Below, one piece after another: positions 5,340-22,830 of a stretch of 64,000 bases of DNA. The translations under genes and the position numbers were made by a program. How positions within the stretch are numbered: the stretch's first letter is position 1; every line of letters starts with the position of its first letter. The notes under the pieces were generated by a model. It was not told where the DNA came from, did not search any database, and saw only the letters and a program-made list of their open reading frames with translations. Source of the stretch: a virus (lineage: Duplodnaviria; Heunggongvirae; Uroviricota; Caudoviricetes); the IMG/VR virus record IMGVR_UViG_3300050821_006962, positions 27,133-91,132 of that record; one strand, 5' to 3'.

Positions 5340-5344
5340 AAACT

Positions 5345-5420: not shown

Positions 5421-5430
5421 ACTGAAAATT

Positions 5431-5506: not shown

Positions 5507-5514
5507 ACTGAATT

Positions 5515-5944: not shown

Positions 5945-5949
5945 AAACT

Positions 5950-6035: not shown

Positions 6036-6040
6036 AAAGC

Positions 6041-6181: not shown

Positions 6182-6187
6182 AAAACT

Positions 6188-6271
6188 TGGTCGCCCACCA
6201 CGGAGTCGAACCGTGACGCCCGAAGGCACGGGGTTTTGAATCCCGCGCGTCTGCCAGTTCCGCCAGCAGGC
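6188..6271 (-). tRNA. tRNA-Leu(CAA)
   Basis: Type II; anticodon loop TTCAAAA; variable arm TGCCTTCGGGCGT; T-arm CACGG-TTCGACT-CCGTG. Confidence 0.65.
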
Positions 6272-6279
6272 GATAAAAC

Positions 6280-6355
6280 TTGGAGGGCCACCGGGGAGTC
6301 GAACCCCGCTCCTAGCGTTCGTAGCGCTATGCAATTTCCGATATACGAGCAGCCC
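6280..6355 (-). tRNA. tRNA-Arg(ACG)
   Basis: Anticodon stem TAGCG/CGCTA with loop CTACGAA; T-arm CGGGG-TTCGACT-CCCCG. Confidence 0.65.
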
Positions 6356-6445
6356 TCAGAAATCGGAATCGTGTTTGCTCTGAACCACAGAGATTACCGC
6401 GCCTTGCAGCCGAAGCTGGCGAAGGACTTGACGCGACACAAATAT

Positions 6446-6523
6446 TGGAACACTCGGAGAGATTCGAACTCTCTTTGGTACGGGTTAGAACGCCGTTGGG
6501 ATATCCAGTTTCCCGACGAGTGC
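6446..6523 (-). tRNA. tRNA-Arg(UCU)
   Basis: D arm GGGA-AACTGGATA-TCCC; anticodon TTCTAA; T-arm GAGAG-TTCGAAT-CTCTC. Confidence 0.6.
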
Positions 6524-6669
6524 TCAGAAATTTTCGGGGTGCTGACGTGCCCTTAGACCGGAACCTTTTACGCGGGTCCGCACGGAGTGTGTCGCGAATC
6601 ACTTACGCGCTGGCTTAGGCAAGAAGACAGTACTCGTCCGTTCTCTGGCTCACGGAAGCCTTTGCAAAT

Positions 6670-6783
6670 TTACAGCGCGATGATTCGCGCGATGATTGGA
6701 TACTTACGGCAAACCCACAGCAGCACAAAAGGCGCTGCGGATGTGAACGAGACCGCAATCAGATACTTCTCGAAGAAGGTCAT
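6670..6783 (-). CDS. 37-aa hydrophobic membrane peptide
   Basis: GGGAGG RBS 5 nt upstream of the ATG at 6783; MTFFEKYLIAVSFTSAAPFVLLWVCRKYPIIARIIAL. Confidence 0.4.
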   Translation of the reverse strand: MTFFEKYLIAVSFTSAAPFVLLWVCRKYPIIARIIAL

Positions 6784-6844
6784 GAGAACCTCCCTTCTTA
6801 AATTTGGGCCGAGATTACAGCTCGACCCGCTCTACATGCAAACT

Positions 6845-6929
6845 TGGTACCCCGCACAGGAGTCGAACCTGCACGACCGAAGTCACTGGTTCCTAAGACC
6901 AGCGCGTCTCCCAATTCCGCCAACAGGGC
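6845..6929 (-). tRNA. tRNA-Leu(UAG)
   Basis: Type II; anticodon stem CTGGT/ACCAG with loop CTTAGGA; variable arm TGACTTCGGTCGT. Confidence 0.6.
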
Positions 6930-6930
6930 A

Positions 6931-7020
6931 CTGAAAATCTGCCGAGCGTTCTACCATTAAACTACGTGCGAGCAAGCTCACACGGCGGGACTCGAACCCG
7001 CACCTCTCAGCTCATCTGCC
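6931..7020 (-). other. tRNA 3' half followed by a tRNA 5' half (permuted order) joined by a perfect acceptor hairpin
   Basis: Minus RNA reads ...CUGAG-AGGU-GCGGG-UUCGAGU-CCCGC-CGUGUGA-G-CUUGC-UCGCACG-UA-GUUU-AAUGGUAG-AAC-G-CUCGG-CAGAUUUUCAG. The acceptor strands CGUGUGA/UCGCACG pair 7/7; GGCAGAU is duplicated in both halves. Confidence 0.4.
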
Positions 7021-7030
7021 ACCCGAACAA

Positions 7031-7360
7031 ATTGGTGGACTTAATTTCCGGGCGGATTTTATCAGCGCGAGCCGCCGTCCCGCATAGGGCACCTTTAGTG
7101 CCGAGTCCTATTGCCCCAAACCAGCATGCGAGGCCCCGTCAGGGAGCTACCCCGATAGGTTGATGGACTCTGTCGCGACAACATCTCCGTGGTAGGCGTG
7201 CCTTGACGCCTCGTTCCCCTTCGCACTTTCGTGCTCCGGTGTCCGTTCGCTCCCTAGAGAGCCGCGACCTCGCGCGCCCGAAGGCTACAGCCCCGAAGGG
7301 CCTGCGCTGTCCGCGACCCTGCAAGGGTCCGTAGTGGATAACCGAACGGCTCCACAAAAT
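7031..7360 (-). ncRNA. 330-nt GC-rich structured non-coding segment ending ...GUCCACCA
   Basis: No credible ORF; at least 6 perfect hairpins (GGCAC-CTTTA-GTGCC, GACCCT-GCA-AGGGTC, GGCGT-GCCTT-GACGCC, CCCGAAGGG x2, palindrome TGTCGCGACA); sits inside the tRNA operon. Confidence 0.35.
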
Positions 7361-7439
7361 TGGTCGAGAAAGCTGGATTCGAACCAGCGTGCCCTCGCTT
7401 CCGAAGCGAGTGAGATAAGCCAAACTCCTCTATTTCTCG
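7361..7439 (-). tRNA. tRNA-Pro(CGG)
   Basis: Perfect acceptor CGAGAAA/TTTCTCG; anticodon stem CTCGC/GCGAG with loop TTCGGAA; T-arm GCTGG-TTCGAAT-CCAGC. Confidence 0.6.
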
Positions 7440-7449
7440 ACAGTAAAAT

Positions 7450-7537
7450 TGGCTGGGGCAACAGGACTCGAACCTGTAATGAGCGCTAGCTCTGCCTGAT
7501 TAACAGTCAGGTGCTGTACCAATTGAGCCACACCCCA
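7450..7537 (-). tRNA. tRNA-Asn(GUU) with a 17-nt variable arm
   Basis: Anticodon arm CCTGA-CTGTTAA-TCAGG is identical to the E. coli Asn loop; extra hairpin CAGAGCTAGCGCTCATT in the variable region; discriminator G. Confidence 0.5.
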
Positions 7538-7546
7538 GTAGAAAAA

Positions 7547-7621
7547 TGGCGGAGATAACGGGAATCGAACCCGTACTTCATCCGTGACAGGGACGTGTCG
7601 TTACCAACTGACCCTATCTCC
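7547..7621 (-). tRNA. tRNA-Asp(GUC)
   Basis: Perfect acceptor GGAGATA/TATCTCC; anticodon loop CTGTCAC; T-arm ACGGG-TTCGATT-CCCGT. Confidence 0.65.
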
Positions 7622-7630
7622 GCTGAAAAA

Positions 7631-7719
7631 TGGTCGAGATAGAAGGATTCGAACCTCCGGGGCGTTGCCGCACTGGTTTCCAAAACCAGACCGCTACCAA
7701 GCTACGGACCTATACCTCG
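7631..7719 (-). tRNA. tRNA-Pro(UGG) with an expanded D region and a 14-nt variable arm
   Basis: Aligns with E. coli Pro(UGG) (AGCTTGGTAGCG, CTGGT-TTTGGAA-ACCAG, GGAGG-TTCGAAT-CCTTC) but carries insertions. Confidence 0.45.
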
Positions 7720-7833
7720 ACAGAAAATGTATACATCGTAGCAAACGTTTCGAACCGGACGCTTTCGCCACAACGGCAGGCCACGCAATGTAGCCTATGG
7801 TGTTTCACCCTTACGGATGACTTTGACATAGAC

Positions 7834-8031
7834 TCAGCCCACGCTTCTCGCCGAATTAGGCTCGCGAACCTGTAGCGTCTTTTCGGCAATCAGCAAGTAA
7901 ACTTTCGCGCTTTCCTCGACGTCGCCACTTAAGGCTAGGTGGACTATCTGCACGGTACTGACCCGTCGCTGGGCCAAGAAAATTATTGGTTCATTCATAA
8001 GTCGGAAAGCCAGTCGCAGCGGATGCGCCAT
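7834..8031 (-). CDS. hypothetical protein (65 aa)
   Basis: ORF track only; weak RBS. Confidence 0.25.
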   Translation of the reverse strand: MAHPLRLAFRLMNEPIIFLAQRRVSTVQIVHLALSGDVEESAKVYLLIAEKTLQVREPNSARSVG

Positions 8032-8053
8032 ACATTACCGTCCCAGTGCCCCG

Positions 8054-8125
8054 GGAGCTGGTGGGAGTCGAACCCACTCTGCCGCTTTGGTGGACTGTGA
8101 ACCAGCCGACCGCCCCGTGTTCATC
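8054..8125 (-). other. tRNA-like 3' element resembling a tmRNA 3' end (no full cloverleaf)
   Basis: GUGGG-UUCGACU-CCCAC-CAGCUCC, compared with E. coli ssrA GCGGG-UUCAACU-CCCGC-CAGCUCC-ACCA. Only about 40 nt upstream is pairable and no CCA is encoded. Confidence 0.3.
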
Positions 8126-8157
8126 ATGCGGTGATGAGCCGCCCACGGTTTGAACTC

Positions 8158-8349
8158 TTAAACCTTTCTGTGCTCGATTGGCGTGAGGTCTAACGTCGTC
8201 TCCGCGCCGCACTCGCAAACATATCTGTTGCCGGGTCGTCTCCGAACCGGGTCCCCGCATTCGGGGCATGAAATCAGCCGGGGTGGTTGCCCGACTCCGT
8301 TCTTCGCCGGAATCCATATTTCCGTTTCGAACGTTTCCATTGAACCCAT
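8158..8349 (-). CDS. Zn-ribbon protein (CPECG...CECG)
   Basis: ...LISCPECGDPVRRRPGNRYVCECGAETTLD; ATG at 8349 or 8340 lies inside or just after the -10 box of promoter 8348-8376, so it is possibly leaderless. Confidence 0.5.
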   Translation of the reverse strand: MGSMETFETEIWIPAKNGVGQPPRLISCPECGDPVRRRPGNRYVCECGAETTLDLTPIEHRKV

Positions 8350-8376
8350 CCTACCACACTTTCGAAACCTTGTCAA
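8348..8376 (-). promoter_or_regulatory. sigma70-like promoter (TTGACA-17-TAGGAT)
   Basis: Minus strand TTGACA (8371-8376), 17-nt spacer, TAGGAT (8348-8353). Confidence 0.5.
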
Positions 8377-8464
8377 GCTTTATTTTCGGGGCAGCTTTGG
8401 CTCGTGCTAGCTGCCCCTTGGAGGTGCAACTAATGCAAGGTGATGCTACTGCGATTCGAGAACC

Positions 8465-8493
8465 AGTCTAGCACAGTTCTCGAAACTTGTCAA
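8465..8493 (-). promoter_or_regulatory. sigma70-like promoter (TTGACA-17-TAGACT)
   Basis: Same architecture; the flanking sequence TTTCGAgAACtTGTCAAG is repeated from 8348-8376. Confidence 0.45.
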
Positions 8494-8508
8494 GTACTAT
8501 TTTAAACT

Positions 8509-8585
8509 TGGGGTGAAGTACGGGGGTCGAACCCGTGCCGAGGGATTCACAGTCCCCCGTGCTACCTTTACACTAACGACACCAC
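8509..8585 (-). tRNA. tRNA-His(GUG)
   Basis: Anticodon loop CTGTGAA; extra 5' G (G-1) opposite discriminator C73 as expected for His; T-arm ACGGG-TTCGACC-CCCGT. Confidence 0.6.
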
Positions 8586-12058: not shown

Positions 12059-12760
12059 CTACTTTCCGCTTTTGCGGGATTGGGTCTTTCGAATCTTATA
12101 GCGTTTAGGTGCTGTGCGAGATATTCCCAGTTGGGCCTTTTGGCCCTCGGGTATTGCGATGCTGTCCTGCACAACGACGGTTGCTTGCAATACTTTCTTT
12201 GCGCGCTGACGCACGTAGCGGAACTTCAAGCCGCGCTCGATAATCGTATCTGGTGCCTCAATCGGGTCCGGGTGCGGAAGAACCGCGCCGAGGATTGGGT
12301 CTCCGGGTTTGATGCGCCCATCTTCCAGACCTCGCTGAATATAGGCCCAGAACAGGTCGCTCGATTCTTTGATGCACTGACGATACGCGTCCGTGTAGGT
12401 CGGCACCGGGCCGGGGTCTTTTCTGTTAGCGTACAACTCGGATGACGCCTTCGTGTTCGTGCTCGGCAGGTCGTACAGCTCGTTGAACGCGGCGGTCAGC
12501 TCTTTCTCGTCGGAGCGAATCTTCAAACCGCAGTTGTAAAGGCACTTGATTTCGGTCACGCCTGTCGGGAACGTGAAGATGCTTAGGTTGTAGTCCTTGC
12601 CGGGTCCCGCGAGGGAGCGCGGCGTGCGCCCGCCCTTCAAGTGGGTGCAGGGAAACCGAAGCTTGCTCTGGAAACGCTGGAGCACGCTCGCCAGCGTGTA
12701 CTTGCCGGGGGCGACCCTCTGCAACTGCTCGACTAGGAACTGCTCAACCGTTTGCGTCAT
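12059..12760 (-). CDS. hypothetical protein
   Basis: 233-aa ORF; last gene of the leftward block. Confidence 0.5.
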   Translation of the reverse strand: MTQTVEQFLVEQLQRVAPGKYTLASVLQRFQSKLRFPCTHLKGGRTPRSLAGPGKDYNLSIFTFPTGVTEIKCLYNCGLKIRSDEKELTAAFNELYDLPSTNTKASSELYANRKDPGPVPTYTDAYRQCIKESSDLFWAYIQRGLEDGRIKPGDPILGAVLPHPDPIEAPDTIIERGLKFRYVRQRAKKVLQATVVVQDSIAIPEGQKAQLGISRTAPKRYKIRKTQSRKSGK

Positions 12761-12884
12761 TGGGTCCTTCTTGTTCCGGCCAGCGGACGTTTATGTCCGG
12801 AGCCGGGATTGGATTTCAAACTTCTGGGCTAACTCGGTTTTATTCGGTAAACTCTGTTAGCGTGGGCCAGCCATAGTCTACCCT

Positions 12885-14092
12885 CCTCGGGGATGGGAAA
12901 ACTTTTTCCTCCGATATCGGAGGCACTTTTTGTCACTGTGACACTTTTTGTCTCCGATATCGCTATCGGGGTGTAACGTGACGCCGTAGCCGGATTGGCC
13001 GATTGCCACGAATGCGACCACCGTCCCACAAAGGGGCCTTGGGGCGCTCGCCACCCGGCAGGCTGCCGGGTCCTCGGTTTGGCCCCCGAATTGCTGGGGG
13101 AGCAAACGAATTGCCAAAGACTATCTTGTTGAAAACAAAGCTCTTAACGTTTCGCCCGAGGTTCGCTGCCAGCCTGCGCCGACAGGTCATTGCGCGTTGC
13201 GATTCCTTGCGGGAGGGTCGCGCCGAGCGCTTGCGGTTAATAGGGCATTAATCGCCAAACGCCGAGAAACAGTCTAAGCTGCTGATTCTACGGCATTTAG
13301 CGTTTGGCAAGCGGCTTGCTGGGGGAGCAAATTCGTTGCCAAACTTGAAATTCGTTGAAAATAAAGGACTTGCGCGATAATTTTGCGCTCATCGGAAACG
13401 GCTGGCAAACTACTCATCCCAACCGTCATTAGCTTGTGCGTTGTATCTCATTTGTTTTGTTCATGTTACAGCGAGTGTCGAGGCGTTGAAATTGGGTTGG
13501 CGCGATACGCGCCGTCACCTGACAAGGTCACTGAAGATATGACAAAAGAAGCGCGGTTAGGGTCGTGAGTTGGTTTGCATCTCGTAACTCGTTGATTCTA
13601 TTCAAAGCCAAGCTCGCGCTGCCCACACGTTGGCAAGTGCCCAAATATGGTCAGATTGGCGTCGAGGCCGTCACGCGGATTCTATCATACTATCATAAAA
13701 TATGCGAAAGGGAATTAAGTCGTTTAAATTGATGTGATTACGAGCGAAAAACAGCCGAAAACACGAGAGGTGTATACCCCTAGCGAGCCTTGGACCGATA
13801 TCGCTTCAATTGATACCGATATCGCAGGAAAAGATTTTCCTTATATATGATTTTTCATATAATTGAATTCACTTCATCGTAGAGAGGGAAAAAGTTTTCC
13901 TCCGATATCGCTAGCTGTTGGACCGATATCACTAAGTCGCGTCGTGGGGGGTACACTTTGCGAATTTTGACCTTAAAATGGCATCTAACTCTATCAATAT
14001 AAAGGACTTGATTCCAAAATGTGGATTTTATGATAGTTATGATAGTATGATAGCATTTTCCGCTTGACAGTGTGATATCGGTCTGTTACACT
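12885..14092. repeat. repeat-rich divergent control region (candidate origin or regulatory hub)
   Basis: Seven or more CCGATATCG boxes; 12-bp palindrome TCCGATATCGGA (12909-12920); direct repeats CACTTTTTGTC x2 flanking inverted repeat GTCAC-TG-GTGAC; two copies of a 60-bp repeat CTGGGGGAGCAAA...TTGCCAAA (13091-13150 and 13316-13375); inverted repeat CGCCAAACGC...GCGTTTGGC (13253-13310); TATCATA x2 (13682-13697) inverted relative to TATGATAG x3 (14030-14054). Confidence 0.6.
14065..14092 (+). promoter_or_regulatory. sigma70-like promoter with a GATATC box in the spacer
   Basis: TTGACA 14065-14070, 16-nt spacer gtgtGATATCggtctgt, TACACT 14087-14092; the ATG of the next gene lies 7 nt downstream (leaderless?). 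Confidence 0.5.
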
Positions 14093-14098
14093 GGTTGG

Positions 14099-14569
14099 AT
14101 GACTGAATCAACCATCTTGACAGCATTGGATGTGCGCAGCTGGCTGCGTCCTTGCGTCTACATCGCTCGCCTCGGCGACCGTGTCCAATACATCGGCCAA
14201 TCATCCCAAGGCATCCTGCGACCGCTGGACCCGCAACACCATGTTATATCCTTGCCAACATTCGAGTATGATACTCTGGAGATAATCTGGCTCGAATCAG
14301 AGGAGCAAGCTCTCGCTCTGGAAAGCGAGTTGATATTCAAACACTCTCCACCGTTCAACACTCGCGGCGTTGCGCCTCTGGACACAGCAGGCGACGCGTG
14401 TCGACCGTGTTTGTGGTTTGACCCAAGCAAGCGCGATTATGTTGTTCTCGCACGCCGCACTCCATTCGAAAAGCGAGGCGTGGAGATATTGCGCACCAAG
14501 GATAGAGCAGAGGCAAAGCAAAGGCTTCGCGACACGCTGAAAGCAGAGAATATAAAAGCGCGGTACTAG
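14099..14569 (+). CDS. GIY-YIG domain protein
   Basis: VYIARLGDRVQYIGQS...E...N motif pattern; 157 aa. Confidence 0.55.
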   Translation: MTESTILTALDVRSWLRPCVYIARLGDRVQYIGQSSQGILRPLDPQHHVISLPTFEYDTLEIIWLESEEQALALESELIFKHSPPFNTRGVAPLDTAGDACRPCLWFDPSKRDYVVLARRTPFEKRGVEILRTKDRAEAKQRLRDTLKAENIKARY

Positions 14570-14611
14570 TACGTTTTTCTTCTTGACATCATTCGCTCCA
14601 TATACGATACT
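14564..14611 (+). promoter_or_regulatory. early promoter cassette copy 1 (TACTAGTACGTTTTTCTTCTTGACA + GATACT)
   Basis: Palindrome GTACTAGTAC, T-tract, -35 TTGACA 14583-14588, 17 nt, -10 GATACT; the ATG at 14618 is 7 nt downstream. Confidence 0.55.
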
Positions 14612-14617
14612 CGTCGC

Positions 14618-16045
14618 ATGGACACCACACTCAAGACCTACCGCATCCCCGAGGCCAACCTATCCACCCTCCAGTCGCGCATGACGCAGTTGGCGCGCCG
14701 CTGCACCCGCATCAAGGTCGAAGCACCCAAGCTCACGGTCGGCGCGTTCGAGGACATCAAGTACCGCAACGAGGAAGGCTTCGACCGCGTGCGCCGCGTG
14801 TACACTGTCACCTTGGAATCGGCTGGACGTCCCAAGATAAACGGCTATGAATTCGCCGCCGTGATATCGCCTGTCACTGATGAAGATGGCAAGCTCATCG
14901 GCAACGTTATGCGCCGCGTCCCCGGATTCGAAGGCGATATCCCCACCAAGTTTCGCGAGGCCACTAATTACTGCGACCACTGCAAGGCAGCGCGTTATAG
15001 ACTGGAAACGTTTGTCATCCACAGCGACGCAGGCTTCCGGCAAATTGGCCGGAACTGCCTTGCAAATTATCTTGGACTCACCGACCCGAGCACGCTGGCT
15101 GCTATCGCGGAGATTTTGATTGACGCTGATGAGCTTGCTGAGATGTCAGAGCGCGAAGGCTTCGGCGGTGGCTCAGTAATGGAACGCATTCCTATGGATG
15201 ACGTGCTGACCGTAGCAGCCTCTGCAATCCGCTTGTATGGCTGGCTCTCGAACAAGAGCGCGCAAGAACACGGTAAGACCTCAACGTCTGGCCGCGTGCG
15301 CGAATGGATATTCGGAAATGCGAAAGACCGGGAGCGCTTCGAATTTCCGCTGGTCGCATCCGATGAAGACAAGACCCTCGCAGCCAACACCTACGAATGG
15401 CTGCAATCGCTCTCTATCCACACACAAGACGATTACCGATACAACCTCGCACTCCTCGCGCAGTCTGTATCAGTCAGCAGCAAGAACTTCGGCATCGCGG
15501 TCTCTGCCATCAATGCCTACAGCAAGGAAAGGGAATTTGAGATTCGCCGCAATGCCCGCATCGAGTCTGACAGCAAGTCAAACTTCATCGGCACAATCGG
15601 CGAGCGCATCACTTTGGAAAACACCACAGTGCTGTATCACACCACGTTCGAATCACAGTTTGGCGTCTCCCACTTCTACAAGATGAAGTCCGGCGACAAT
15701 ATCATCGTGTACTTCGCCTCGACCGAGATGTTTGAGCAGGGCGAGGTCATCCCACAAATGACCGCACGCGTGAAGAACCACGAGAACCGCGTGGATAAGT
15801 ACAACCCGGAAGGCGTGAAGCAGACCATTATCACGCGCGCCACGCTGCCCAAGCCTCCCAAGGCCCCGCTGACACCGGAGCAGAAGACAGCCAAGAAGGC
15901 CGCTGCGAAGCTTCGCCGCATCGCTAAGACTCTGCCGCACATTGCGGAGGATATCAGGCTCGGCAAAGGCGACAATGACGATTACACCGCTTGGAATATC
16001 GTGGTCGACTTGGAATGGCAGATTAAGAGGGAGAATAAGCTATGA
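14618..16045 (+). CDS. large early hypothetical protein (475 aa)
   Basis: Long ORF with no recognisable motifs; first long gene of the early operon. Confidence 0.6.
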   Translation: MDTTLKTYRIPEANLSTLQSRMTQLARRCTRIKVEAPKLTVGAFEDIKYRNEEGFDRVRRVYTVTLESAGRPKINGYEFAAVISPVTDEDGKLIGNVMRRVPGFEGDIPTKFREATNYCDHCKAARYRLETFVIHSDAGFRQIGRNCLANYLGLTDPSTLAAIAEILIDADELAEMSEREGFGGGSVMERIPMDDVLTVAASAIRLYGWLSNKSAQEHGKTSTSGRVREWIFGNAKDRERFEFPLVASDEDKTLAANTYEWLQSLSIHTQDDYRYNLALLAQSVSVSSKNFGIAVSAINAYSKEREFEIRRNARIESDSKSNFIGTIGERITLENTTVLYHTTFESQFGVSHFYKMKSGDNIIVYFASTEMFEQGEVIPQMTARVKNHENRVDKYNPEGVKQTIITRATLPKPPKAPLTPEQKTAKKAAAKLRRIAKTLPHIAEDIRLGKGDNDDYTAWNIVVDLEWQIKRENKL

Positions 16046-16254
16046 CATATCGCAATCCTTATACCGTGTTCGAATCGATTCACGGTGAGTACAATCCGGA
16101 CAAGCCGCACGACCCGCCGTTCAGCGTATGGATGAGAGAGCAGAAGCAGAAATATCTCACGCTCTTCCCGGACGCGGCGCAGAACCAGATATACGGCCAT
16201 TTCTTTAACGCCGAGCTGGAGAAATTCTTTCGATGGATTTCGGAGAATCTATAA
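16042..16254 (+). CDS. hypothetical protein
   Basis: ATGA overlap with the upstream stop. Confidence 0.45.
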   Translation: MTYRNPYTVFESIHGEYNPDKPHDPPFSVWMREQKQKYLTLFPDAAQNQIYGHFFNAELEKFFRWISENL

Positions 16255-16451
16255 TGGCATACGAAGCACTCAAGAAGTGGGCTGACGATTACACCGCATG
16301 GCTGCATAAGATGGCAGCACAGCGCAAAGCCTGTCTCGCGTGTGAGCAAGATGCGTATCTCTCCGACCCTAACACAGACTTGGATGCCGCAATGATGGGC
16401 ACGCGCTGTGACCCGCACGGCGGACCATATTGCAAGAAGGTGAAAGCATAG
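16254..16451 (+). CDS. hypothetical protein
   Basis: ATG overlaps the upstream TAA. Confidence 0.4.
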   Translation: MAYEALKKWADDYTAWLHKMAAQRKACLACEQDAYLSDPNTDLDAAMMGTRCDPHGGPYCKKVKA

Positions 16452-16500
16452 TATTAGTACGTTTTTGTTGTTGACACCTATTCCGGATTTTGGGACACTA
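16449..16500 (+). promoter_or_regulatory. early promoter cassette copy 2
   Basis: TAGTATTAGTACGTTTTTGTTGTTGACA, 17 nt, GACACT. Confidence 0.5.
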
Positions 16501-16515
16501 AGAGTGGAGGTAGTC

Positions 16516-16722
16516 ATGAGCTACCAGTGGGACGAAGTAAAGCAGCAAGCGGTTCGAGTGCCTTACGATACTGACCGCGTGGTAGACGAAGCTTGCGTTT
16601 GCGGGCATTATCTCAGCGAGCACAAATCCCGAGGTCTCTGCGAGTATTGCAAGAGCGACTGCAAGGCATTTCGTTTCGTGGCTTTCATCTTAGCTAGCGA
16701 CGTCGAACCTGCAAAACAATGA
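16516..16722 (+). CDS. Cys-rich small protein
   Basis: GGAGG RBS; CVCGHYLSEH...CEYCKSDC. Confidence 0.5.
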   Translation: MSYQWDEVKQQAVRVPYDTDRVVDEACVCGHYLSEHKSRGLCEYCKSDCKAFRFVAFILASDVEPAKQ

Positions 16723-16868
16723 CACCTCTCCTCATCCGTCTCGCCCCCGAGCTATTAACGCGTTTACGCGCGCTAGCGGATGAGAAGGGTGTATCGGTCG
16801 CGTGCATCATACGCAGCATACTGGAAGATTGGTTTCGAAAGGCCGAAGATGCAAAAGTTAAGAGTTAA
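16719..16868 (+). CDS. ribbon-helix-helix (CopG/Arc/ParD-like) DNA-binding protein, 49 aa
   Basis: PELLTRLRALADEKGVSVACIIRSILEDWF is a classic RHH pattern; ATGA-coupled; below the ORF-track size cut-off. Confidence 0.5.
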   Translation: MTPLLIRLAPELLTRLRALADEKGVSVACIIRSILEDWFRKAEDAKVKS

Positions 16869-17274
16869 GCGTTTGTTAGAAAACATAGAGCGTATTCCCC
16901 ACGTTTTCCACACAGGTAATTGTGGCAGAAGCAATCGCGGTCGCTTAAAACTACCTTTGGAAATAGAAAAGCAAATCGCGGAGCGCCGACACAGGGGAGA
17001 AACCCTTAGCTCTCTGTCAAAAGAATTCGGCGTAACGGACGGAGCTATTATCGATATCTATAGAAGGCGCTGCCCAGACTGGAGGGCCTTTCAGTTACCT
17101 GCAAAAGAGGTAAGGAAAAATCACGAAGCGACCACAGCGCGCTTACTTCTTGAATTTGGAAAAATTCCCTCGTTCTCCGTTCTGAAAGAAATGGGATTGT
17201 TGTCATATTATAACTATTATAAAGCTCTAATAAGAGGAGGAAACAATGAGCGTCAAAATGCGTCAAATGGTTGA
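16849..17274 (+). CDS. HTH DNA-binding protein
   Basis: ETLSSLSKEFGVTDGAIIDIYRRR helix-turn-helix; overlaps the RHH gene end. Confidence 0.45.
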   Translation: MQKLRVKRLLENIERIPHVFHTGNCGRSNRGRLKLPLEIEKQIAERRHRGETLSSLSKEFGVTDGAIIDIYRRRCPDWRAFQLPAKEVRKNHEATTARLLLEFGKIPSFSVLKEMGLLSYYNYYKALIRGGNNERQNASNG

Positions 17275-17593
17275 GAAGGAAATTTACACTAAGGTCATCG
17301 ATGTATTGCTCGACAAGGGATTTTATCTCTCTGTCGACAACGGCGATAACAGCGGCAATGATTATGAAATATACCACAGCCGCGACCGCAAAGACATTTT
17401 GAAAGCGATGTACCTTTGCGACGAGGACCGTCTGTATGTTCACAAACCGTTTAAGAATCAGCCGTTCGCGTGGGTCTACTTCGTGTACGGCAATGATGGC
17501 TGGGACGTCATCAATGACTACACGGTTAACTTGGAGAAGTATATCGGCGACGGCACTGAAGTAGACAAGGTCGTTAAGAAGTACGAGGACTAA
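17246..17593 (+). CDS. hypothetical protein
   Basis: AGGAGG RBS. Confidence 0.55.
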   Translation: MSVKMRQMVEKEIYTKVIDVLLDKGFYLSVDNGDNSGNDYEIYHSRDRKDILKAMYLCDEDRLYVHKPFKNQPFAWVYFVYGNDGWDVINDYTVNLEKYIGDGTEVDKVVKKYED

Positions 17594-17784
17594 TGAAGCT
17601 CCTCGCAAAAATAGGCCACGCCTTGCATATCGCGCTTCTCAGCGTGCTGTTGAGCGCGTTTATCCTCGGCGTGGTCCTGATGCTGGCGATGCTCGTACAA
17701 AGCCGCGTCGAGGCATACAAGCGGTGGAGCACCGACACGCCACCACCCGCAGTCAAGATTGAGCAAGACAACGAACAGTACTAG
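17593..17784 (+). CDS. small membrane protein
   Basis: ATGA-coupled; two TM helices. Confidence 0.5.
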   Translation: MKLLAKIGHALHIALLSVLLSAFILGVVLMLAMLVQSRVEAYKRWSTDTPPPAVKIEQDNEQY

Positions 17785-17830
17785 TACGTTTTTGTTCTTG
17801 ACGCGGTCCTCGGGCTGTGAGAGAATTTGA
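17779..17830 (+). promoter_or_regulatory. early promoter cassette copy 3
   Basis: TACTAGTACGTTTTTGTTCTTGACG, 17 nt, GAGAAT. Confidence 0.5.
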
Positions 17831-17844
17831 GCATGGAGGCAGTT

Positions 17845-18162
17845 ATGAAATACGACGTCAAGCGCATCCAGCAAGCAGTCTCGGAAGCAATCGCGCACTC
17901 TCAGCAGTTCGCGAGCCACGACGATGGCGGCACCTGTAACTTCGATGCGTGCATCCTGTACGTTCCCGGGATGCGCAAGTCTACCGCCGACTCGATTCAA
18001 GGCACCTCGCTCTTCACCTCCGGCTGGCACGGTCGCAGCCTGCATATCGGCGGCACGCTAGGACAAGGCGCGCGTCGCACCAAGATGGCTGAGGCGCAAC
18101 GGGATTTTCTCAAGGCCAATTACCCCGACATCAACATCGGGATGTATTACCAGATGGACTAA
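17845..18162 (+). CDS. hypothetical protein
   Basis: GGAGG RBS. Confidence 0.5.
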   Translation: MKYDVKRIQQAVSEAIAHSQQFASHDDGGTCNFDACILYVPGMRKSTADSIQGTSLFTSGWHGRSLHIGGTLGQGARRTKMAEAQRDFLKANYPDINIGMYYQMD

Positions 18163-18163
18163 C

Positions 18164-18379
18164 ATGACCGACTTATTCACATTCGCCAACACCGAGCAAG
18201 GCCGGGAGCTTCGCACGCACGTTGCGAATATTTACTTTCTTGCTGGCCGTACGGTGCGTGAATTCGAGGAAGACTTCACGGACGGCGATATGACCACGCG
18301 CGTGCTACGCTTGGAAGTAAGCGGCAAGCGCAAAGGCGAGGGTCAGATAGCCGCTGATATGAAACGGAGAAAAGCATGA
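18164..18379 (+). CDS. hypothetical protein
   Basis: ORF track. Confidence 0.45.
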   Translation: MTDLFTFANTEQGRELRTHVANIYFLAGRTVREFEEDFTDGDMTTRVLRLEVSGKRKGEGQIAADMKRRKA

Positions 18380-18666
18380 CACTCTGCACTCAATGCAATG
18401 CACAGATTCCTACACTGGACCGCCGCCAACGACGTGTAAATTCAGAACTGCACCAACTAGGGCTGACATATCACAAATTTCTCCCGGTCGCATCGGTCGA
18501 CTCCGCATTGCGCGCAAACGGATTTGCAGAAACATCATGCTGGGCATTTCAGCCGGGTCACGGCGTGGTCCGCATCCACGAGGAGGTTGGCGATGGCAAG
18601 TGGCTCACGCTGCACGCGTACAAGATGGCAAGCGGTAACTGGGAAGTTGTCGCATACGTCAATTAA
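18376..18666 (+). CDS. hypothetical protein
   Basis: ATGA-coupled. Confidence 0.45.
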   Translation: MTLCTQCNAQIPTLDRRQRRVNSELHQLGLTYHKFLPVASVDSALRANGFAETSCWAFQPGHGVVRIHEEVGDGKWLTLHAYKMASGNWEVVAYVN

Positions 18667-18759
18667 GCGCGTGGTTCACCGAGTAGTAGAGTATCTGGTG
18701 CTGTCCGCTGTTAATCTGGTCGGACTGCTCTGGCTGATATACCGCATGAGGAAGAAACG

Positions 18760-18954
18760 ATGACCCTGATTGTACCCACGGCATACCGCCGCAACGCGTT
18801 CCGGGAGCGCAACGAGAAGCTTAACACGACCGCATCCGATGCGGCAGAGGTCACACTGACCTGTCTGCGATGCTTCCGGCCCGCGAGTATAGGCACGCGC
18901 TGCGATGATTGCAGGATGGCGCGCGTGAAAGCGAACGCGGGGAGGAAGCGCTAG
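18760..18954 (+). CDS. Zn-ribbon small protein (CxxC...CxxC)
   Basis: ORF track. Confidence 0.45.
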   Translation: MTLIVPTAYRRNAFRERNEKLNTTASDAAEVTLTCLRCFRPASIGTRCDDCRMARVKANAGRKR

Positions 18955-19003
18955 TACTAGTACGTTTTTGTTGTTGACAAGATTCGGAGGCCATGAGACA
19001 CTC
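18952..19003 (+). promoter_or_regulatory. early promoter cassette copy 4
   Basis: TAGTACTAGTACGTTTTTGTTGTTGACA, 17 nt, GACACT. Confidence 0.5.
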
Positions 19004-19020
19004 TACTCATGGAGGCAACA

Positions 19021-19323
19021 ATGAAAGTCAAAGCACTGAATCAACTGGCGACCGAGATGGTAGGCGATGGCAAAAAGCAAAACGTCTTTTTCGTGACCAA
19101 GGAAGGCAACGTCGTGCTGATTGCCCTCGACTTCAATCTGGCCTATCACACGTGGCAAGGTCTTGCTTTTAGCCACATCGAAAGCGCACTGGAAGACCGC
19201 GCGACGGGCATCATCGCATCTGCGGGCATGGAGCCTCAGTACGATGAGAAGACCGATGATTTTACTGGTCCAGAGCGCTGGGAAGTGCGCGACGATTCCC
19301 GCACCTTCGGGTTCAGGAGCTAA
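19021..19323 (+). CDS. hypothetical protein
   Basis: GGAGG RBS. Confidence 0.5.
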   Translation: MKVKALNQLATEMVGDGKKQNVFFVTKEGNVVLIALDFNLAYHTWQGLAFSHIESALEDRATGIIASAGMEPQYDEKTDDFTGPERWEVRDDSRTFGFRS

Positions 19324-19325
19324 AT

Positions 19326-19787
19326 ATGGACCTCTCTGCCGCACACTCGCTCATCTGGAAAGCGATGCTCGACCACAAGCTGTTTGACCTCGGCTGGTCC
19401 TTCGAATGGGACCACGCAAAGACTCGCAGCGGCCAATGCCGCTTCGCAGACCGCACGATTAGCATGTCCAAACATTATGCGATAATGGAGGAGGAATCCG
19501 AAATTCGCGATACCATCCTGCACGAAATTGCGCATGTGCTAGTCGGCCCCGGACATCATCACGATTACGTATGGAGACTCAAGGCCCGCGAAATTGGCGC
19601 GAAGCCTCTGCGATGCTCCCAGAGCGAGAAGCGGGTCCCCGGTAACTACATCGGCAAGTGCGCGGGCTGTGGCGTGGAAGTACATCGGTACAAGAAGCCG
19701 CGCATGCTGAACGTCCCCGGCTGGTATCAGCACACAGCATGCAAGCGCATGGGCAAAGAATCAAAAATTGAATGGACGGTAAAATAG
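19326..19787 (+). CDS. SprT-like Zn metallopeptidase-domain protein
   Basis: HEIAH (HExxH) plus a C-terminal CxxC...Cxx zinc ribbon. Confidence 0.55.
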   Translation: MDLSAAHSLIWKAMLDHKLFDLGWSFEWDHAKTRSGQCRFADRTISMSKHYAIMEEESEIRDTILHEIAHVLVGPGHHHDYVWRLKAREIGAKPLRCSQSEKRVPGNYIGKCAGCGVEVHRYKKPRMLNVPGWYQHTACKRMGKESKIEWTVK

Positions 19788-19835
19788 TACTAGTACGTTT
19801 TTGTTCTTGACACCCGGAGCGAATCGCGGTACAGT
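19785..19835 (+). promoter_or_regulatory. early promoter cassette copy 5
   Basis: TAGTACTAGTACGTTTTTGTTCTTGACA, 17 nt, TACAGT. Confidence 0.5.
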
Positions 19836-19856
19836 TAAAGCATGGAGGACGTGATG

Positions 19857-20126
19857 AAGGTTCAAGTAAATCGCAACTACATCTACTACCCCAACCTGCT
19901 CGACCGAATCGATGCGCGCACGAATCTGCTCCCCGGCACGGTGGTCCGAGTCGTGAATTTTCACGGATGCCCCCGGGCCAACACGATGAACCACGCGCAC
20001 GTTGCGGACAAGAACGGCATCTTCATCGGTCTCGTTCACACTAACTCGCTGCACGCAATGAGTGATGCTCCACTGGTCATCGATGCTATCAAGCGCGACA
20101 TCGCGCAGAAAGCGGTGCAGTCATGA
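19857..20126 (+). CDS. hypothetical protein
   Basis: GGAGG RBS. Confidence 0.5.
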   Translation, partial: KVQVNRNYIYYPNLLDRIDARTNLLPGTVVRVVNFHGCPRANTMNHAHVADKNGIFIGLVHTNSLHAMSDAPLVIDAIKRDIAQKAVQS

Positions 20127-20320
20127 TGGGAGCAAACTACAAGAGCAAGAAGGATTTGAAGGCCGCTGTTGGGCAGGCTCTGCGTTACGAGGAGACCTCG
20201 TTCTTCGGCCCCGAGTACAAAGAGAATGGGACCTTTTGCGTGGTCGGCCCCAGCCCCACCCAGCGCAAGTGGTTCGCATCCGTGACCATGCAGAATGGTC
20301 TGATTGCAAAGGTGTCGTGA
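20123..20320 (+). CDS. hypothetical protein
   Basis: coupled. Confidence 0.4.
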   Translation: MMGANYKSKKDLKAAVGQALRYEETSFFGPEYKENGTFCVVGPSPTQRKWFASVTMQNGLIAKVS

Positions 20321-20598
20321 TGAATAAGCCATCAGGCTTGCTGTACAACAGAGCAGTGAGCGCTGCCTGCGATGCGTCTAACCGTTTCGTGAAGCTGCCA
20401 GATGCGCATCGCGAGCTTATCAGTGACGCTACGCTTGCGCTGTACCTGAAATTCCCTGACAAGACTGAGGAGGAGTATCACCTCGCGGTCTCTAGGCTCG
20501 TAACGGCGGTGCGCAGCCACAAAGAAGGTAATCAGCGTATTTGGACCTTGAAGGTACCAGAGCTTGGACAGCGATTCGTCCGCGTGGTGCCAGCATGA
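20320..20598 (+). CDS. hypothetical protein
   Basis: TGATG overlap. Confidence 0.4.
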   Translation: MNKPSGLLYNRAVSAACDASNRFVKLPDAHRELISDATLALYLKFPDKTEEEYHLAVSRLVTAVRSHKEGNQRIWTLKVPELGQRFVRVVPA

Positions 20599-20867
20599 GC
20601 GAACACTACATAGCGCTGTCTGGTATGCACGGCTGCCTGCCGGACCATTGCGAAGTTTTCGAAACCCGGGCAGAGGCGATTGCAGACCTGACAAGCCTGT
20701 TCGAACTGGGTCGCATCCATGAAACCCGCCTGCGGGAAAACGGCTATCTGGAACTGGAAGTCAGCCTGATTGAGGCCGCGCAAGGTGATTGCTTCGGCGC
20801 AGATTATTGTGAAATTAGAGCTTGCAATTGCGCCACGCCTGCGGTACACTCTGACAGTGGAGACTAA
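20595..20867 (+). CDS. hypothetical protein
   Basis: ATGA overlap. Confidence 0.4.
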   Translation: MSEHYIALSGMHGCLPDHCEVFETRAEAIADLTSLFELGRIHETRLRENGYLELEVSLIEAAQGDCFGADYCEIRACNCATPAVHSDSGD

Positions 20868-20868
20868 C

Positions 20869-21027
20869 ATGACAGTCGGCGAGCGCTACCAAGTACGTGC
20901 AAAAATTTCGATGCTCTTCCGGGAGGCGAATCTTTTCGAAGACCGCCAGACCGAGGAGGGTCGCGTGAAGGCCCGGGAGCTTCGTCAGCAAGCGGACGCG
21001 ATGAACGAGGAACTGCGGAGGAAGTAA
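20869..21027 (+). CDS. small coiled-coil protein
   Basis: coupled. Confidence 0.35.
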   Translation: MTVGERYQVRAKISMLFREANLFEDRQTEEGRVKARELRQQADAMNEELRRK

Positions 21028-21185
21028 TGACAGGCCAGCAAATTAAGGCGCTAGCGTTTACTCGCGAGAAGCGAAAGCACCAAACGAGTCCCAGCACCCG
21101 TTTGAAGGTCGACCGCAAGCGCGCACGATTGAGGAAGCGAACTATTGAGCGCCATTTTGTGCTCAAACAGAAGGGGAGCCAATGA
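21027..21185 (+). CDS. small basic protein (52 aa)
   Basis: TAATG and ATGA overlaps at both ends; below the ORF-track cut-off. Confidence 0.35.
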   Translation: MTGQQIKALAFTREKRKHQTSPSTRLKVDRKRARLRKRTIERHFVLKQKGSQ

Positions 21186-21388
21186 GAGGCAGCGAGCAGC
21201 TGACAAAAGAGATTCGAGACGCGGCAGTGACTTATGAGCGCGTCGTAAAGAATTTCCCCAGCGAGTATCTTCTCAGCTGCGGCCACTACGGCGTAGGGAC
21301 GGAGCGCAATCCTGCGCACCTCGGGCAGGTTCGCTACTGCCAGCAATGCACAGAGGCAAAGCTTCGAGAGACAGGCGACATCAAGTGA
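21182..21388 (+). CDS. Cys-containing small protein
   Basis: ORF track. Confidence 0.45.
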   Translation: MRGSEQLTKEIRDAAVTYERVVKNFPSEYLLSCGHYGVGTERNPAHLGQVRYCQQCTEAKLRETGDIK

Positions 21389-21487
21389 TTGAACGCCGCC
21401 AACTACCGCGACCGAAACCCGGCAGCACGCTTCGCCGGATTTACGATATCACGTTCGCTCAAATCAGGAAGACGGAGGCAAAGCAGA

Positions 21488-21796
21488 ATGAGCAGACTCG
21501 AAAGAGCAATTGAAATTCTGGAAGCGCTGAATGACTTCTTTCAAGAGCATGACGGGCAGGTGGTGCTCTACTCGGACGCGCAACTGCTCGACGGCGACAT
21601 CACAATCAAGGACGCCATCGCCGATTGTCTAGTTCAAGGCGACGCGATACTGGCGAATAAGATTGTTCCCCGCAGCCAGCGCCGCCGACTTAACACCTAC
21701 ATGGGCCGGACCTCCGGCTGGATTGGCAAACGAAAGATTCGCTACTTCGATAGTCAGGAGGAGGCGAACGCATGGTTGAATTCATCGGAGCAGTAA
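21488..21796 (+). CDS. hypothetical protein
   Basis: GGAGG RBS before MSRLERAIEIL. Confidence 0.45.
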   Translation: MSRLERAIEILEALNDFFQEHDGQVVLYSDAQLLDGDITIKDAIADCLVQGDAILANKIVPRSQRRRLNTYMGRTSGWIGKRKIRYFDSQEEANAWLNSSEQ

Positions 21797-21888
21797 GTTT
21801 AGTGGCTGGACTATTTGTTCTCGGTATGTGCTGGCGGTACCGACCTCGCTAATGTGAGGCGGAAAACTCATTCAGGAGGAATTAGGCA

Positions 21889-22434
21889 ATGACTACCTTT
21901 TACAAGAACACGGAAGTGGTTGTACTGGAAGCAAGCGCGAGCCTTTCGAAGGTCCGCTTAGTTGGACAGGAAGATTACCAAGCGGTATGGGTACCGAATC
22001 GGTTACTCGAACAGCGTGAAGTGAAACCCACAACGAAGGTTCTGGCCGTGTGTTCTACTTCGCCCGAGGTCGTTTCGCGATTCCTCGAATCAACGAAGTT
22101 TGCAGATGTCCCCGCCGTGACCGTGGAGCAGGCTCTGGTGCCCTTCGTGAAGCGCCTGCGCATCCTTCACGCTCCCAAGGCCTCGACGTACCTGCAAGAG
22201 CAGGCATCGAAGCAAGGCGTTATCCTCGACCCGCGTACGCGTCCCATCAATGTGGGCGAGAACAGCAAGGGCATGCGCAGCGCGGCAGCGGAGATTGAAT
22301 TCTCCAAAGACACGCCGACCAACATCTTGCCCAACGGCTACCGTGTGCGTCCCAACGGTCGCTACCGCGTGAACAGCCTCGCGGTCGCATTCGCACTGCT
22401 CAAGGCCGGAGCGAAGCAGACCGCGTTCGCCTAG
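21889..22434 (+). CDS. hypothetical protein
   Basis: AGGAGG RBS. Confidence 0.55.
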   Translation: MTTFYKNTEVVVLEASASLSKVRLVGQEDYQAVWVPNRLLEQREVKPTTKVLAVCSTSPEVVSRFLESTKFADVPAVTVEQALVPFVKRLRILHAPKASTYLQEQASKQGVILDPRTRPINVGENSKGMRSAAAEIEFSKDTPTNILPNGYRVRPNGRYRVNSLAVAFALLKAGAKQTAFA

Positions 22435-22483
22435 TACTGGTACGTTTTTGTTGTTGACAGCGTACCGAATCGATGTTAGGATG
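22432..22483 (+). promoter_or_regulatory. early promoter cassette copy 6
   Basis: TAGTACTGGTACGTTTTTGTTGTTGACA, 17 nt, TAGGAT. Confidence 0.5.
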
Positions 22484-22539
22484 TACCCAGAGTCGGACAC
22501 CTTAACCAGCCTGCGACAAGTGGCGGCTGGACGACGCTA

Positions 22540-22830
22540 AGGGAACTTATCAGGCGCGTCGGTGGATGTGGCGAGCAACGCGCGGACTCATCATCTGTCG
22601 CGGCCTCGTACCCGGTAGGCTGATTACCCCGGGTGGTTCGAATCCCACCCGACTCAACTTTTTGCGAGAGGCACTCGGTGCTCCTCGCAGTATGCAGCCC
22701 CAACGTGGCTTCCGAGGCCCTCAGCGCCGAAAGTGCTGGACAAGGCAGGCGGGTAAAGTCACTAGGCGGTAAGGTCGCGACTGAAACCGAAGGGTAACTG
22801 CATACTGCTGGGCGCATCGCGGAGGAACTA
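22540..22830 (+). other. structured leader containing a T-arm-like element (GGGTGG-TTCGAATC-CCACCC)
   Basis: A 290-nt non-coding stretch between promoter copy 6 and the first ORF; 6-bp stem with 8-nt TTCGAATC loop at 22631-22650, followed by hairpin GCGAGAGG...CCTCGC. Confidence 0.3.

Follow-up and report, generated by a model that had tools for sequence, protein, structure and literature searches.

In phages, orphan takeover genes are as a rule preceded by strong, repeated early promoters, whose presence in any one phage is to be expected. In the pre-early region of T5, small host-takeover genes stand under strong host-type promoters. Small ribbon-helix-helix (RHH) repressors, among them P22 Arc with its target Pant, act on phage early promoters, and the Arc operator lies between the -35 and -10 elements of one promoter pair. 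The early promoters of T4, which combine UP, -35, TGn and -10 elements, have been described as "uber" promoters (Hinton 2010, PMC2988021); upstream they are A/T-rich beyond the promoters of the host, which they out-compete immediately after infection (PMC2988021). T4-type phages also carry promoter-early stem-loops (PeSLs), in which a stable stem-loop has been shown to terminate transcription (Arbiol 2010, PMC2839356; Comeau 2014, PMC4122927), and the stoperators of the cluster A mycobacteriophages L5 and Bxb1 are asymmetric 13-14-mers, bound by a monomeric immunity repressor, that are distributed genome-wide and independently of promoters and block elongation (PMC9283540, PMC6550527). Here we describe a repeated module of ~58 bases, referred to as the cassette, in the early region of a phage of the class Caudoviricetes (positions 27,133 to 91,132 of IMG/VR record IMGVR_UViG_3300050821_006962). 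This 64 kb stretch is called the window, and positions are those of the window unless a relative is named. The cassette is likely to be a strong early promoter for the host RNA polymerase (sigma-70-type) that the phage reuses six times for its host-takeover genes.

The six cassettes and their promoter signature

The window carries six near-identical, co-oriented cassettes whose palindromes (the dyads) start at 14563, 16451, 17778, 18954, 19787 and 22434 on the + strand. Within a cassette, bases are numbered from the predicted transcription start (+1). The composition of the copies is as follows.

14561 to 14618, + strand: cassette 1, with dyad GTACTAGTAC (14563-14572), T-tract (14573-14582), -35 TTGACA (14583-14588) and -10 GATACT (14606-14611); the predicted +1 is the A of ATG 14618, which opens, leaderless and without a Shine-Dalgarno (SD) sequence, a 475-aa open reading frame (ORF; 14618-16045); the central TAG (14567-14569) ends the upstream ORF.
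16449 to 16506, + strand: cassette 2, with imperfect dyad GTATTAGTAC (16451-16460) overlapped by the upstream stop TAG (16449-16451), -35 at 16471-16476, -10 TGG-GACACT at 16494-16499 and +1 at ~16506; GGAGG and then ATG 16516 follow, leaving a leader of ~10 nt.
17776 to 17833, + strand: cassette 3, with dyad at 17778-17787, whose central TAG (17782-17784) is the stop of the upstream ORF, -35 TTGACG at 17798-17803 and -10 TGA-GAGAAT at 17821-17826; the predicted +1 coincides with ATG 17833, and GGAGG and the in-frame ATG 17845 follow.
18952 to 19009, + strand: cassette 4, an exact match to the 28-mer given below, with stop TAG (18952-18954), dyad (18954-18963), -35 (18974-18979) and -10 TGA-GACACT (18997-19002); ATG at +1 (19009), then GGAGG and an in-frame ATG at 19021.
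19785 to 19842, + strand: cassette 5, with stop TAG (19785-19787), dyad (19787-19796), -35 (19807-19812) and -10 TACAGT (19830-19835); ATG at +1 (19842), then GGAGG and an in-frame ATG at 19854.
22432 to 22489, + strand: cassette 6, with stop TAG (22432-22434), dyad GTACTGGTAC (22434-22443), -35 (22454-22459), -10 TGT-TAGGAT (22477-22482) and +1 at ~22489; an RNA gene and no ORF lies downstream.

The presence of six copies, as stated by a first-pass annotation made from the letters of the DNA, exceeds chance by far in every search that was run. Allowing up to three mismatches, the 28-mer TAGTACTAGTACGTTTTTGTTGTTGACA has five matches on the + strand against 0.00 expected (none in 100 shuffles). 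The 15-mer GTTTTTSTTSTTGAC is found in all six copies with no mismatch, the expectation being 0.47 at the two-mismatch setting used, and a search for the palindrome with up to one mismatch returned six sites in the window when 0.37 were expected. A profile hidden Markov model built from 31 instances scored the six copies at 42-60 bits; the next match in the window reached 11.6 bits and covered only the part from -35 to -10. Because these scores are bimodal, the window holds exactly six members of a discrete class, without intermediates.

The copies proved to be less uniform than that annotation had described them. Each was said to begin at the stop codon of the upstream gene and to supply an in-frame double stop; the TAG comes first in four of the six, whereas copies 1 and 3 read CGG and CAG there and use the central TAG as the stop, and a double stop in frame is present in three copies and missing from the other three. 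The 10-bp palindrome is perfect in four copies, not in copies 2 and 6, and the -35 hexamer is TTGACA in five, copy 3 having TTGACG. The spacing of 17 nt between the -35 and -10 hexamers holds in all six, although the -10 hexamer itself conforms to the proposed TAnnnT in only two (TACAGT, TAGGAT) and reads GAnnnT in the other four (GATACT, GACACT, GAGAAT, GACACT). A TG precedes the -10 in four of the window copies.

The promoter assignment is carried by the wider clade. The 31 instances, all non-identical, come from the window, IMG/VR and soil metagenome contigs, and the 26-mer used as the search key, GTACYRGTAC-GTTTTTsTTsTTGACA, ends at the -35. At positions outside this pattern, the instances have T at -15 (24/31), G at -14 (27/31), an atypical G at -12 (24/31), A at -11 (28/31), T at -7 (28/31), C at -1 (19/31) and A at +1 (22/31), and the bases of the spacer are unconstrained. 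Within the pattern, TTGACA is present in 30 of the 31, partly by ascertainment, and a tract containing T5 occupies -44 to -37 in all of them. Marks of a sigma-70-type promoter are present in a -35 close to TTGACA, a spacer of 17 +/- 1 nt, A at -11, T at -7 and TGn. Since positions that played no part in the search are conserved and the spacer is free to vary, there is strong in silico support for the cassette as a sigma-70-type early promoter of the extended -10 kind. The promoter claim of the first-pass annotation is strongly upheld in this way, and the alternative that it had named as refuting, a mobile repeat unrelated to promoter activity, is rejected.

Start codons lie at +1 or 9-13 nt further 3', and an ATG is found at the predicted +1 or at most 2 nt away in 13 of the 31 instances. 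Copies 3-5 share the form cATGGAGGn5ATG, in which the AUG at the 5' end shares its frame with a second AUG, 12 nt on, that is led by an SD. These arrangements mark the predicted transcripts as leaderless or very short-leadered. Leaderless genes have been predicted at 10-19% in three Acidobacteria genomes (PMC3160421).

In the scheme that we propose, each copy would be the upstream two-thirds of a strong early promoter that fires once the phage DNA enters. Its anatomy would run from a GTAC-YR-GTAC dyad at -55 to -46, through a T-rich tract at -45 to -36, to TTGACA at -35, the 17-nt spacer, an extended -10 of the form TGnGAnAnT and a start at an A seven nt downstream; this A would often be that of the start codon, giving a leaderless mRNA, or else would lie 9-13 nt before an SD-led ATG. 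The T-tract may act as an UP-like element, and the dyad may be bound by a dimeric protein that recognises its sequence. What can be read from the DNA itself is the set of elements, the fixed spacing between them, their clade-wide conservation and the lack of a hairpin or terminator. The window also contains 11 other promoter-like sites of the form TTGACA-N17-TAnnnT, all after TG, mostly A/T-rich upstream and devoid of the dyad, and the cultured Acidobacteria phage Tunturi_3 has ~19 dyad-less TTGACn promoter-like sites with a TG-extended -10, several of them apparently leaderless with an ATG ~7 nt after the -10. Given these dyad-less sites in both phages, the dyad and T-tract appear to set one class of promoters apart from the ordinary host-type promoters on which the genome otherwise relies.

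An exact-pattern scan found the 26-mer in ~20 related contigs, from IMG/VR (98-119 kb) and from 15 stretches of soil/peat-type metagenome contigs. It is absent from 185,579 species genomes; a short-query blastn search against 50,697 deposited phages gave only chance partial matches, and megablast of the region against the same phages gave no match. The related contigs (L-numbers below label such stretches of relatives' DNA, apart from L041, L042 and L044, which are Acidobacteriota genomes) are syntenic with the window; their conserved genes are 73-93% identical in nucleotide sequence, many genes are replaced, and G+C contents span 44-54%. Throughout this clade of uncultured soil phages the 26-mer has stayed essentially the same, despite the divergence or replacement of the flanking genes.

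The GTAC dyad and its possible binding partners

Variation in the dyad is found mainly in the central YR (TA, TG, CA or CG), and the outer GTACs are fixed apart from two single-base exceptions; the dyad may also be read as (TAGTAC)x2. When IMG/VR was scanned with only GTACTAGTAC, a gap of 4-16 nt and TTGACA, 12 matches were obtained at a gap of 10. Eleven of these are in this clade, and 10 of the 11 retain the T-rich tract, which the pattern did not require. Other gaps gave 1-11 matches each, apparently unrelated and mostly coding, and no coupling of dyad and -35 was seen outside the clade in IMG/VR. L001 and five further IMG/VR contigs carry the variant GTACYRGTAC-N4-GTACYR-TTGACn, in which the T-tract is replaced while the dyad stays exactly 10 nt from the -35; the two variant copies in L001 have a normal -10 and cATGGAGG downstream. 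Base-specific conservation combined with fixed phasing to the -35 argues for the binding of a sequence-specific, probably dimeric, protein rather than for a generic UP element. As the core promoter is near consensus and should fire unaided, such a factor more likely shuts off or modulates the promoter than is needed for its firing, and the dyad would most economically be explained as an operator through which an early protein of the phage exerts shut-off or feedback.

One product of the early region is a candidate for this protein.

16719 to 16868, + strand: 49-aa ORF, the second gene behind cassette 2; probable RHH (Arc/CopG-like) DNA-binding protein.

It matches seven RHH families of Pfam (E 0.003-0.07) and, among PDB sequences, AvtR, ParG and Arc (E 0.1-1.6), and the protein bears the JGI label "predicted DNA-binding protein". 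Its model has a predicted local distance difference test (pLDDT) score of 82, and its top Foldseek matches are almost all RHH proteins (MatP, CopG, Arc, CopA(SO); structures 1par and 1b01 among them), at template modelling (TM) scores of 0.5-0.7, weak E values of 0.45-2 and, for Arc, 32-35% identity. The ORF is conserved in L032 (93%) and in L001/L022 (38%). A large protein search with it returned only three near-identical proteins, and an exact-protein look-up among contigs gave no match. Pfam searches of ~30 early ORFs recognised SprT-like and endonuclease VII domains alone, with no helix-turn-helix protein and nothing else that is clearly DNA-binding, and no sigma factor, RNA polymerase or methyltransferase was found among 20 larger ORFs. 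The 49-aa protein is the only predicted DNA binder of the early region and stands as a candidate regulator. Four small early proteins, encoded on the + strand at 18376-18666, 21389-21796, 20770-21027 and 18164-18379, are retained most widely across relatives (at 5-8 loci each) and went unmatched in Pfam; they probably perform core functions of host takeover and are alternative candidates for the regulator.

We tentatively propose that the dyad could be a shut-off or feedback operator, with the Arc-like RHH ORF as the sole candidate seen. A broader idea, possible if somewhat doubtful, is that a small phage regulator specific to the clade, either the Arc-like RHH protein or one of the other conserved early proteins, has its operator in the dyad, placed 10 nt before the -35. 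If it were true, that regulator would turn off the whole early class, or retune contacts of the carboxy-terminal domain of the RNA polymerase alpha subunit (alpha-CTD), in an unstudied group of ~100-kb tRNA-rich Acidobacteriota phages with leaderless takeover mRNAs, in which the same promoter launches a tRNA-like RNA. On this same doubtful reading, the phages would possess a self-contained early-transcription circuit without a described homologue. A contact of the dyad with a host factor or with alpha-CTD is about as likely as a phage shut-off operator.

The corresponding explanation, that dyad and T-tract together are bound by alpha-CTD or by an acidobacterial host factor and serve to maximise early strength, is on balance unlikely, while being the best of the alternatives. 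T4 early promoters are likewise composed of UP, -35, TGn and -10 elements with an extra conserved upstream consensus (PMC2988021). Moreover, GTACYRGTAC-N4-GTACYR-TTGAC was found in 6 of the 185,579 species genomes, when ~1 was expected by chance (a rough estimate), and three of the six are Acidobacteriota. The three matches read GTACCRGTAC-N4-GTACTR-TTGAC.

L041, 3620 to 3644: ~210 nt upstream of a secreted protein gene.
L044, 2368 to 2392: just upstream of an HD-domain protein gene.
L042, 3011 to 3035: beside a transposase.

The two that were examined in detail are intergenic and chromosomal, in a promoter-like context; a search of the acidobacterial variant loci against Rfam gave no match. 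These sites are a hint to the host phylum and possibly to a host factor. Against a host-driven element, UP elements vary widely whereas the outer GTACs here are near-invariant, the form with the T-tract is found in none of the 185,579 genomes and none of the 50,697 deposited phages, three Acidobacteriota matches are few, and Tunturi_3, rich as it is in TTGACn sites with a TG-extended -10, lacks GTAC dyads. This last result weakens the notion of the dyad as a general acidobacterial promoter element.

The proposal of a host-read promoter under a phage operator has its own difficulties: the G at -12 is sub-optimal for a sigma-70 of the E. coli type; conservation within the 26-mer is partly a matter of ascertainment, the pattern having been the search key; the Acidobacteriota host is deduced only from three of the six genomes with the variant motif, the soil/peat origin of the contigs and a match to a Tunturiibacter phage protein; a dimer site centred at -50.5 is at no classical repressor or activator position; the RHH assignment is below threshold in every sequence test (all seven Pfam matches fall under the curated cut-off); the monomer model has two helices and no strand; a homologue was seen in only three lineages of the DNA compared; and the protein could equally serve the CCGATATCGG array instead of the dyad. 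That array is formed by a second 10-bp palindrome, which is repeated in the 1.3-kb non-coding stretch (12.8-14.1 kb) between the divergent arms of the genome and recurs inside the first rightward promoter.

12912, 12955, 13796, 13817, 13903 and 14075: repeated 8-10 bp palindrome (C)CGATATCG(G) within 12760-14100, often part of GGGAAAAnnTTTTCCTCCGATATCG units.

The copy GATATCGG lies between the -35 and -10 of the first rightward promoter (TTGACA 14064, -10 TACACT), and L032 has nine copies of the second palindrome, two of which flank the -35 of a GTAC-class promoter. This second family is probably another operator system or an origin.

Proposed roles in module exchange, termination and DNA modification

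As 26-50 identical bases recur every 1-3 kb, the cassettes could double as points of homologous exchange at which early gene modules are shuffled between relatives. The stronger version, in which the repeat is mainly a recombination or mobility module comparable to PeSLs, is kept identical by gene conversion and has promoter activity only as a secondary property, seems to us quite improbable. In comparison with the closest relative, L032, identity rises from ~35% to ~90% exactly at cassette 2 (16447) and collapses within the spacer/-10 of cassette 3 (~17807) and just after cassette 4 (~19010); a BLAST homology block begins at cassette 5 (19785). Gene order is shuffled in L011 and L025, orphan genes between cassettes come and go, and PeSLs behave likewise (PMC2839356, PMC4122927). 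Other breakpoints with respect to relatives fall at ordinary, cassette-free gene boundaries, which counts against this version and also against the milder exchange role in our own scheme. Gene conversion within a genome cannot yield identity across relatives of 44-54% G+C, and the downstream -10, TG and +1 are conserved in function and not in sequence, a pattern that points to selection on promoter activity. The data are consistent with a recombination role for the cassettes and are not proof of preferred crossover sites. With such a role, the idea of repeated early promoters as recombination joints would be extended beyond T4-like phages.

The cassette had also been called terminator-like and had been thought to partition the early region into mini-operons.

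14618 to 22434, + strand: early region, ~25 small ORFs, mostly orphans; six promoters head groups of roughly 3, 5, 5, 2 and 9 genes.

Promoter-headed groups are indeed recognised, although no terminators separate them: a terminator scan of the region found no intrinsic terminator between the six groups, and terminator-like sites are at background (16, against 15.2 in shuffles). The cassettes themselves do not behave as terminators in the window. The 10-mer alone, and the 25-mer with the T-tract, fold at 0.0 kcal/mol; the dyad together with the 30 nt before it is no more stably folded than shuffled sequence (mean z 0.03 over the six copies); and no hairpin ends at the T-tract in any of the six. 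Because terminators between the groups are lacking, the transcripts are probably nested read-throughs and not insulated mini-operons.

A different form of the element exists in L021, L027, L023 and partly L011, where a second dyad is placed 4 nt upstream. As the dyad is self-complementary, the pair makes a hairpin of 6-10 bp with a 4-nt loop, followed by GUUUUUGUU, with energies of -9 to -12.5 kcal/mol (z -1.6 to -3.3).

L021, 2500 to 2477, - strand: doubled-dyad cassette.
L027, 2871 to 2894: doubled-dyad cassette.
L011, 12321 to 12344: doubled-dyad cassette.
L023: also a doubled-dyad cassette.

The doubled form could terminate; the single-dyad form, including all six window copies, is predicted to be unable to do so. 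A composite terminator-promoter, the true equivalent of a PeSL, in which palindrome and T-tract stop the upstream unit and the -35/-10 restart transcription, is therefore a very unlikely account of the cassette. The T/U-rich tract does lie directly 3' of the palindrome, and the hairpins of L021, L027 and L023 suggest that an ancestral or alternative form may terminate. Set against this, all six window copies and ~27 of the 31 instances have no hairpin ending at the T-tract, the upstream arm is coding sequence that differs in each copy, and the variants with N4-GTACYR (type II) lack the T-tract entirely. In 14 of the 31 instances, the stop codon of the longest upstream ORF is the TAG that shares the first G of the dyad, and in another 8 it is the central TAG, which lies in the same frame; in most of the remainder the ORF stops a few bases before the cassette. 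That the cassette supplies the upstream stop codon appears to reflect tight packing of genes and not a termination signal.

Restriction-modification systems commonly target GTAC, and the DNA of T5-like phages has strand-specific nicks; a methylation/restriction switch or nick site could be imagined in a dyad that holds two GTAC, one CTAG and one ACTAGT, in a phage with restriction-type selection elsewhere (GATC 0 vs 291 expected) and a T5 A1-like gene nearby, but we give this idea almost no credence, since the genome shows neither avoidance nor enrichment of GTAC (234 vs 213 expected), no methyltransferase or nickase was found among the ORFs scanned, the GIY-YIG-looking ORF by copy 1 has no Pfam match and no homologue in relatives, and the fixed spacing to the -35 is left unexplained.

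The loss of GATC from the 64 kb is an observation in its own right. No other 4-base palindrome falls below 0.72 of its expectation. The purge is common to L001/L022, L023, L027-L030, L032, L036 and L039, and is not seen in L002, L003, L037, L038, the acidobacterial genomes or Tunturi_3.

Genome context and comparison with known systems

Cassette 6 is predicted to drive a conserved tRNA-like RNA and not a protein gene. No match to this RNA was obtained with Rfam or ARAGORN.

22490 to 22665, + strand: structured RNA behind cassette 6, ~170 nt, its first base one after +1.
L001 6682 to 6899, L011 10971 to 11102, and L068 near 10060: homologues of this RNA behind GTAC-type promoters, the family measuring 134-220 nt.

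A 7-bp acceptor-like stem (GAGUCGG/CCGACUC) closes the molecule, which has a T-arm-like GGUGGUUCGAAUCCCACC beside this stem and is followed by a T5 run. The homologues in L001 and L011 were aligned, and the one in L068 was recognised by eye only. RNAalifold predicted 35 pairs, 12 of them with compensatory changes, including four in the acceptor stem.

Elsewhere in the region 14618-22434, the sole gene recognised by Pfam is SprT-like (19326-19787). The ORF at 14072-14569 (+), between the first rightward promoter and cassette 1, shows a GIY-YIG-like motif by eye (YIARLGDRVQYIGQS), has no Pfam match and no homologue in any relative, and is replaced in L032 by a GTAC-class promoter; it may be a recently inserted homing-endonuclease-like gene. 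A link of such an endonuclease to the cassettes was considered and is unlikely, the motif having been seen only by eye and the ORF being absent from relatives. Beyond the early ORFs come a gene for a T5 A1-like "DNA transfer protein", of a family that is widespread in unrelated phages, and then genes for primase, polymerase, helicase and exonuclease. The layout is that of an early host-takeover region followed by replication genes.

On the minus strand, 29 tRNA genes covering most amino acids form one cluster (2499-8582), with promoter-like sites of the form TTGACA-N17-TGnTAGnnT upstream of it at 8376, 8493 and 8709, and a gene for the tRNA ligase RtcB is found at 60397-61704. Inside the tRNA cluster, at 5510-5799 (-), ~290 nt match Rfam RNaseP_bact_a with 102 bits (gathering score 100), a sign that the phage may encode an RNase P RNA. 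This segment aligns at 73-77% with L011 and L022; no account of such a gene came up in a literature search. Two further features were observed. A 54-nt repeat pair (58253-58306 and 58541-58594) consists of an A-rich tract, TTGACA, N17 and TGTTAGnnT with a shared downstream TTCATGAAAGGTAGG, and appears to be a second, smaller promoter family with a conserved leader. A cluster at 44590-50201 (+) contains glycosyltransferase genes (galactosyltransferase, GT6, GT2, GT11) together with RmlD-like and Polysacc_synt_2 sugar-nucleotide enzymes, and could serve glycosylation of DNA, of the virion or of the host surface.

Hardly anything is known of the transcription signals of soil Acidobacteriota phages, or of those of their hosts, and a conserved promoter of ~58 bp could seed genetic tools and promoter models for Acidobacteriota. 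The cassette is also well suited to testing the influence of a strict upstream dyad on a near-consensus promoter. When the 10-mer was looked up in the literature, primers and oligonucleotides were all that was returned.

Among the described systems, stoperators resemble the cassettes in being short, strictly conserved sites in one orientation within short intergenic spaces, often overlapping stop codons, from which the action of one regulator is implied. They were rejected as an identity for the element, since its site is a dyad locked 10 nt before a -35, with six copies confined to 8 kb of the early region of an apparently lytic phage. The T5 pre-early region is similar in that a takeover-type block has as its neighbours a large cluster of tRNA genes and the gene for an A1-like "DNA transfer protein"; unlike in T5, nothing here points to terminal repeats, injection in two steps or nicks. 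With Arc, the likeness resides in an RHH candidate of ~50 aa encoded in the region that it possibly represses, in the possible binding of short symmetric sub-sites by a dimer of dimers, and in plausible negative feedback. The differences are that the dyad stands at -50 on six promoters and that the RHH fold is weakly supported.

The remaining two comparisons are closer. As in T4, many near-consensus sigma-70 promoters with an extended -10 and a conserved upstream region precede small early genes. However, the upstream element of T4 is an A-rich UP consensus, whereas here it is a strict GTAC-YR-GTAC dyad with a T-tract; the base at -12 is usually G; many transcripts are predicted to lack a leader; an Alt-like modifier is not known; and the two phages are unrelated. 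No T4 core genes were recognised among the ORFs scanned (virion genes lie outside the window). With PeSLs, the cassette shares a repeated composite of symmetric element, AT-rich tract, -35, -10 and SD, in an orphan-rich, plastic region where some junctions between relatives fall at the motif, though here they also fall elsewhere. It departs from them in its phage lineage and in its symmetric element, a loop-less 10-mer that is unable to fold unless duplicated, as it is in a few relatives. In function, the cassette is closest to the T4 early promoters, and in architecture it is closest to the PeSL cassettes minus their stem-loop; what is new about it is a strictly kept GTAC dyad, predicted leaderless starts, a host that is probably acidobacterial and invariance throughout the clade.

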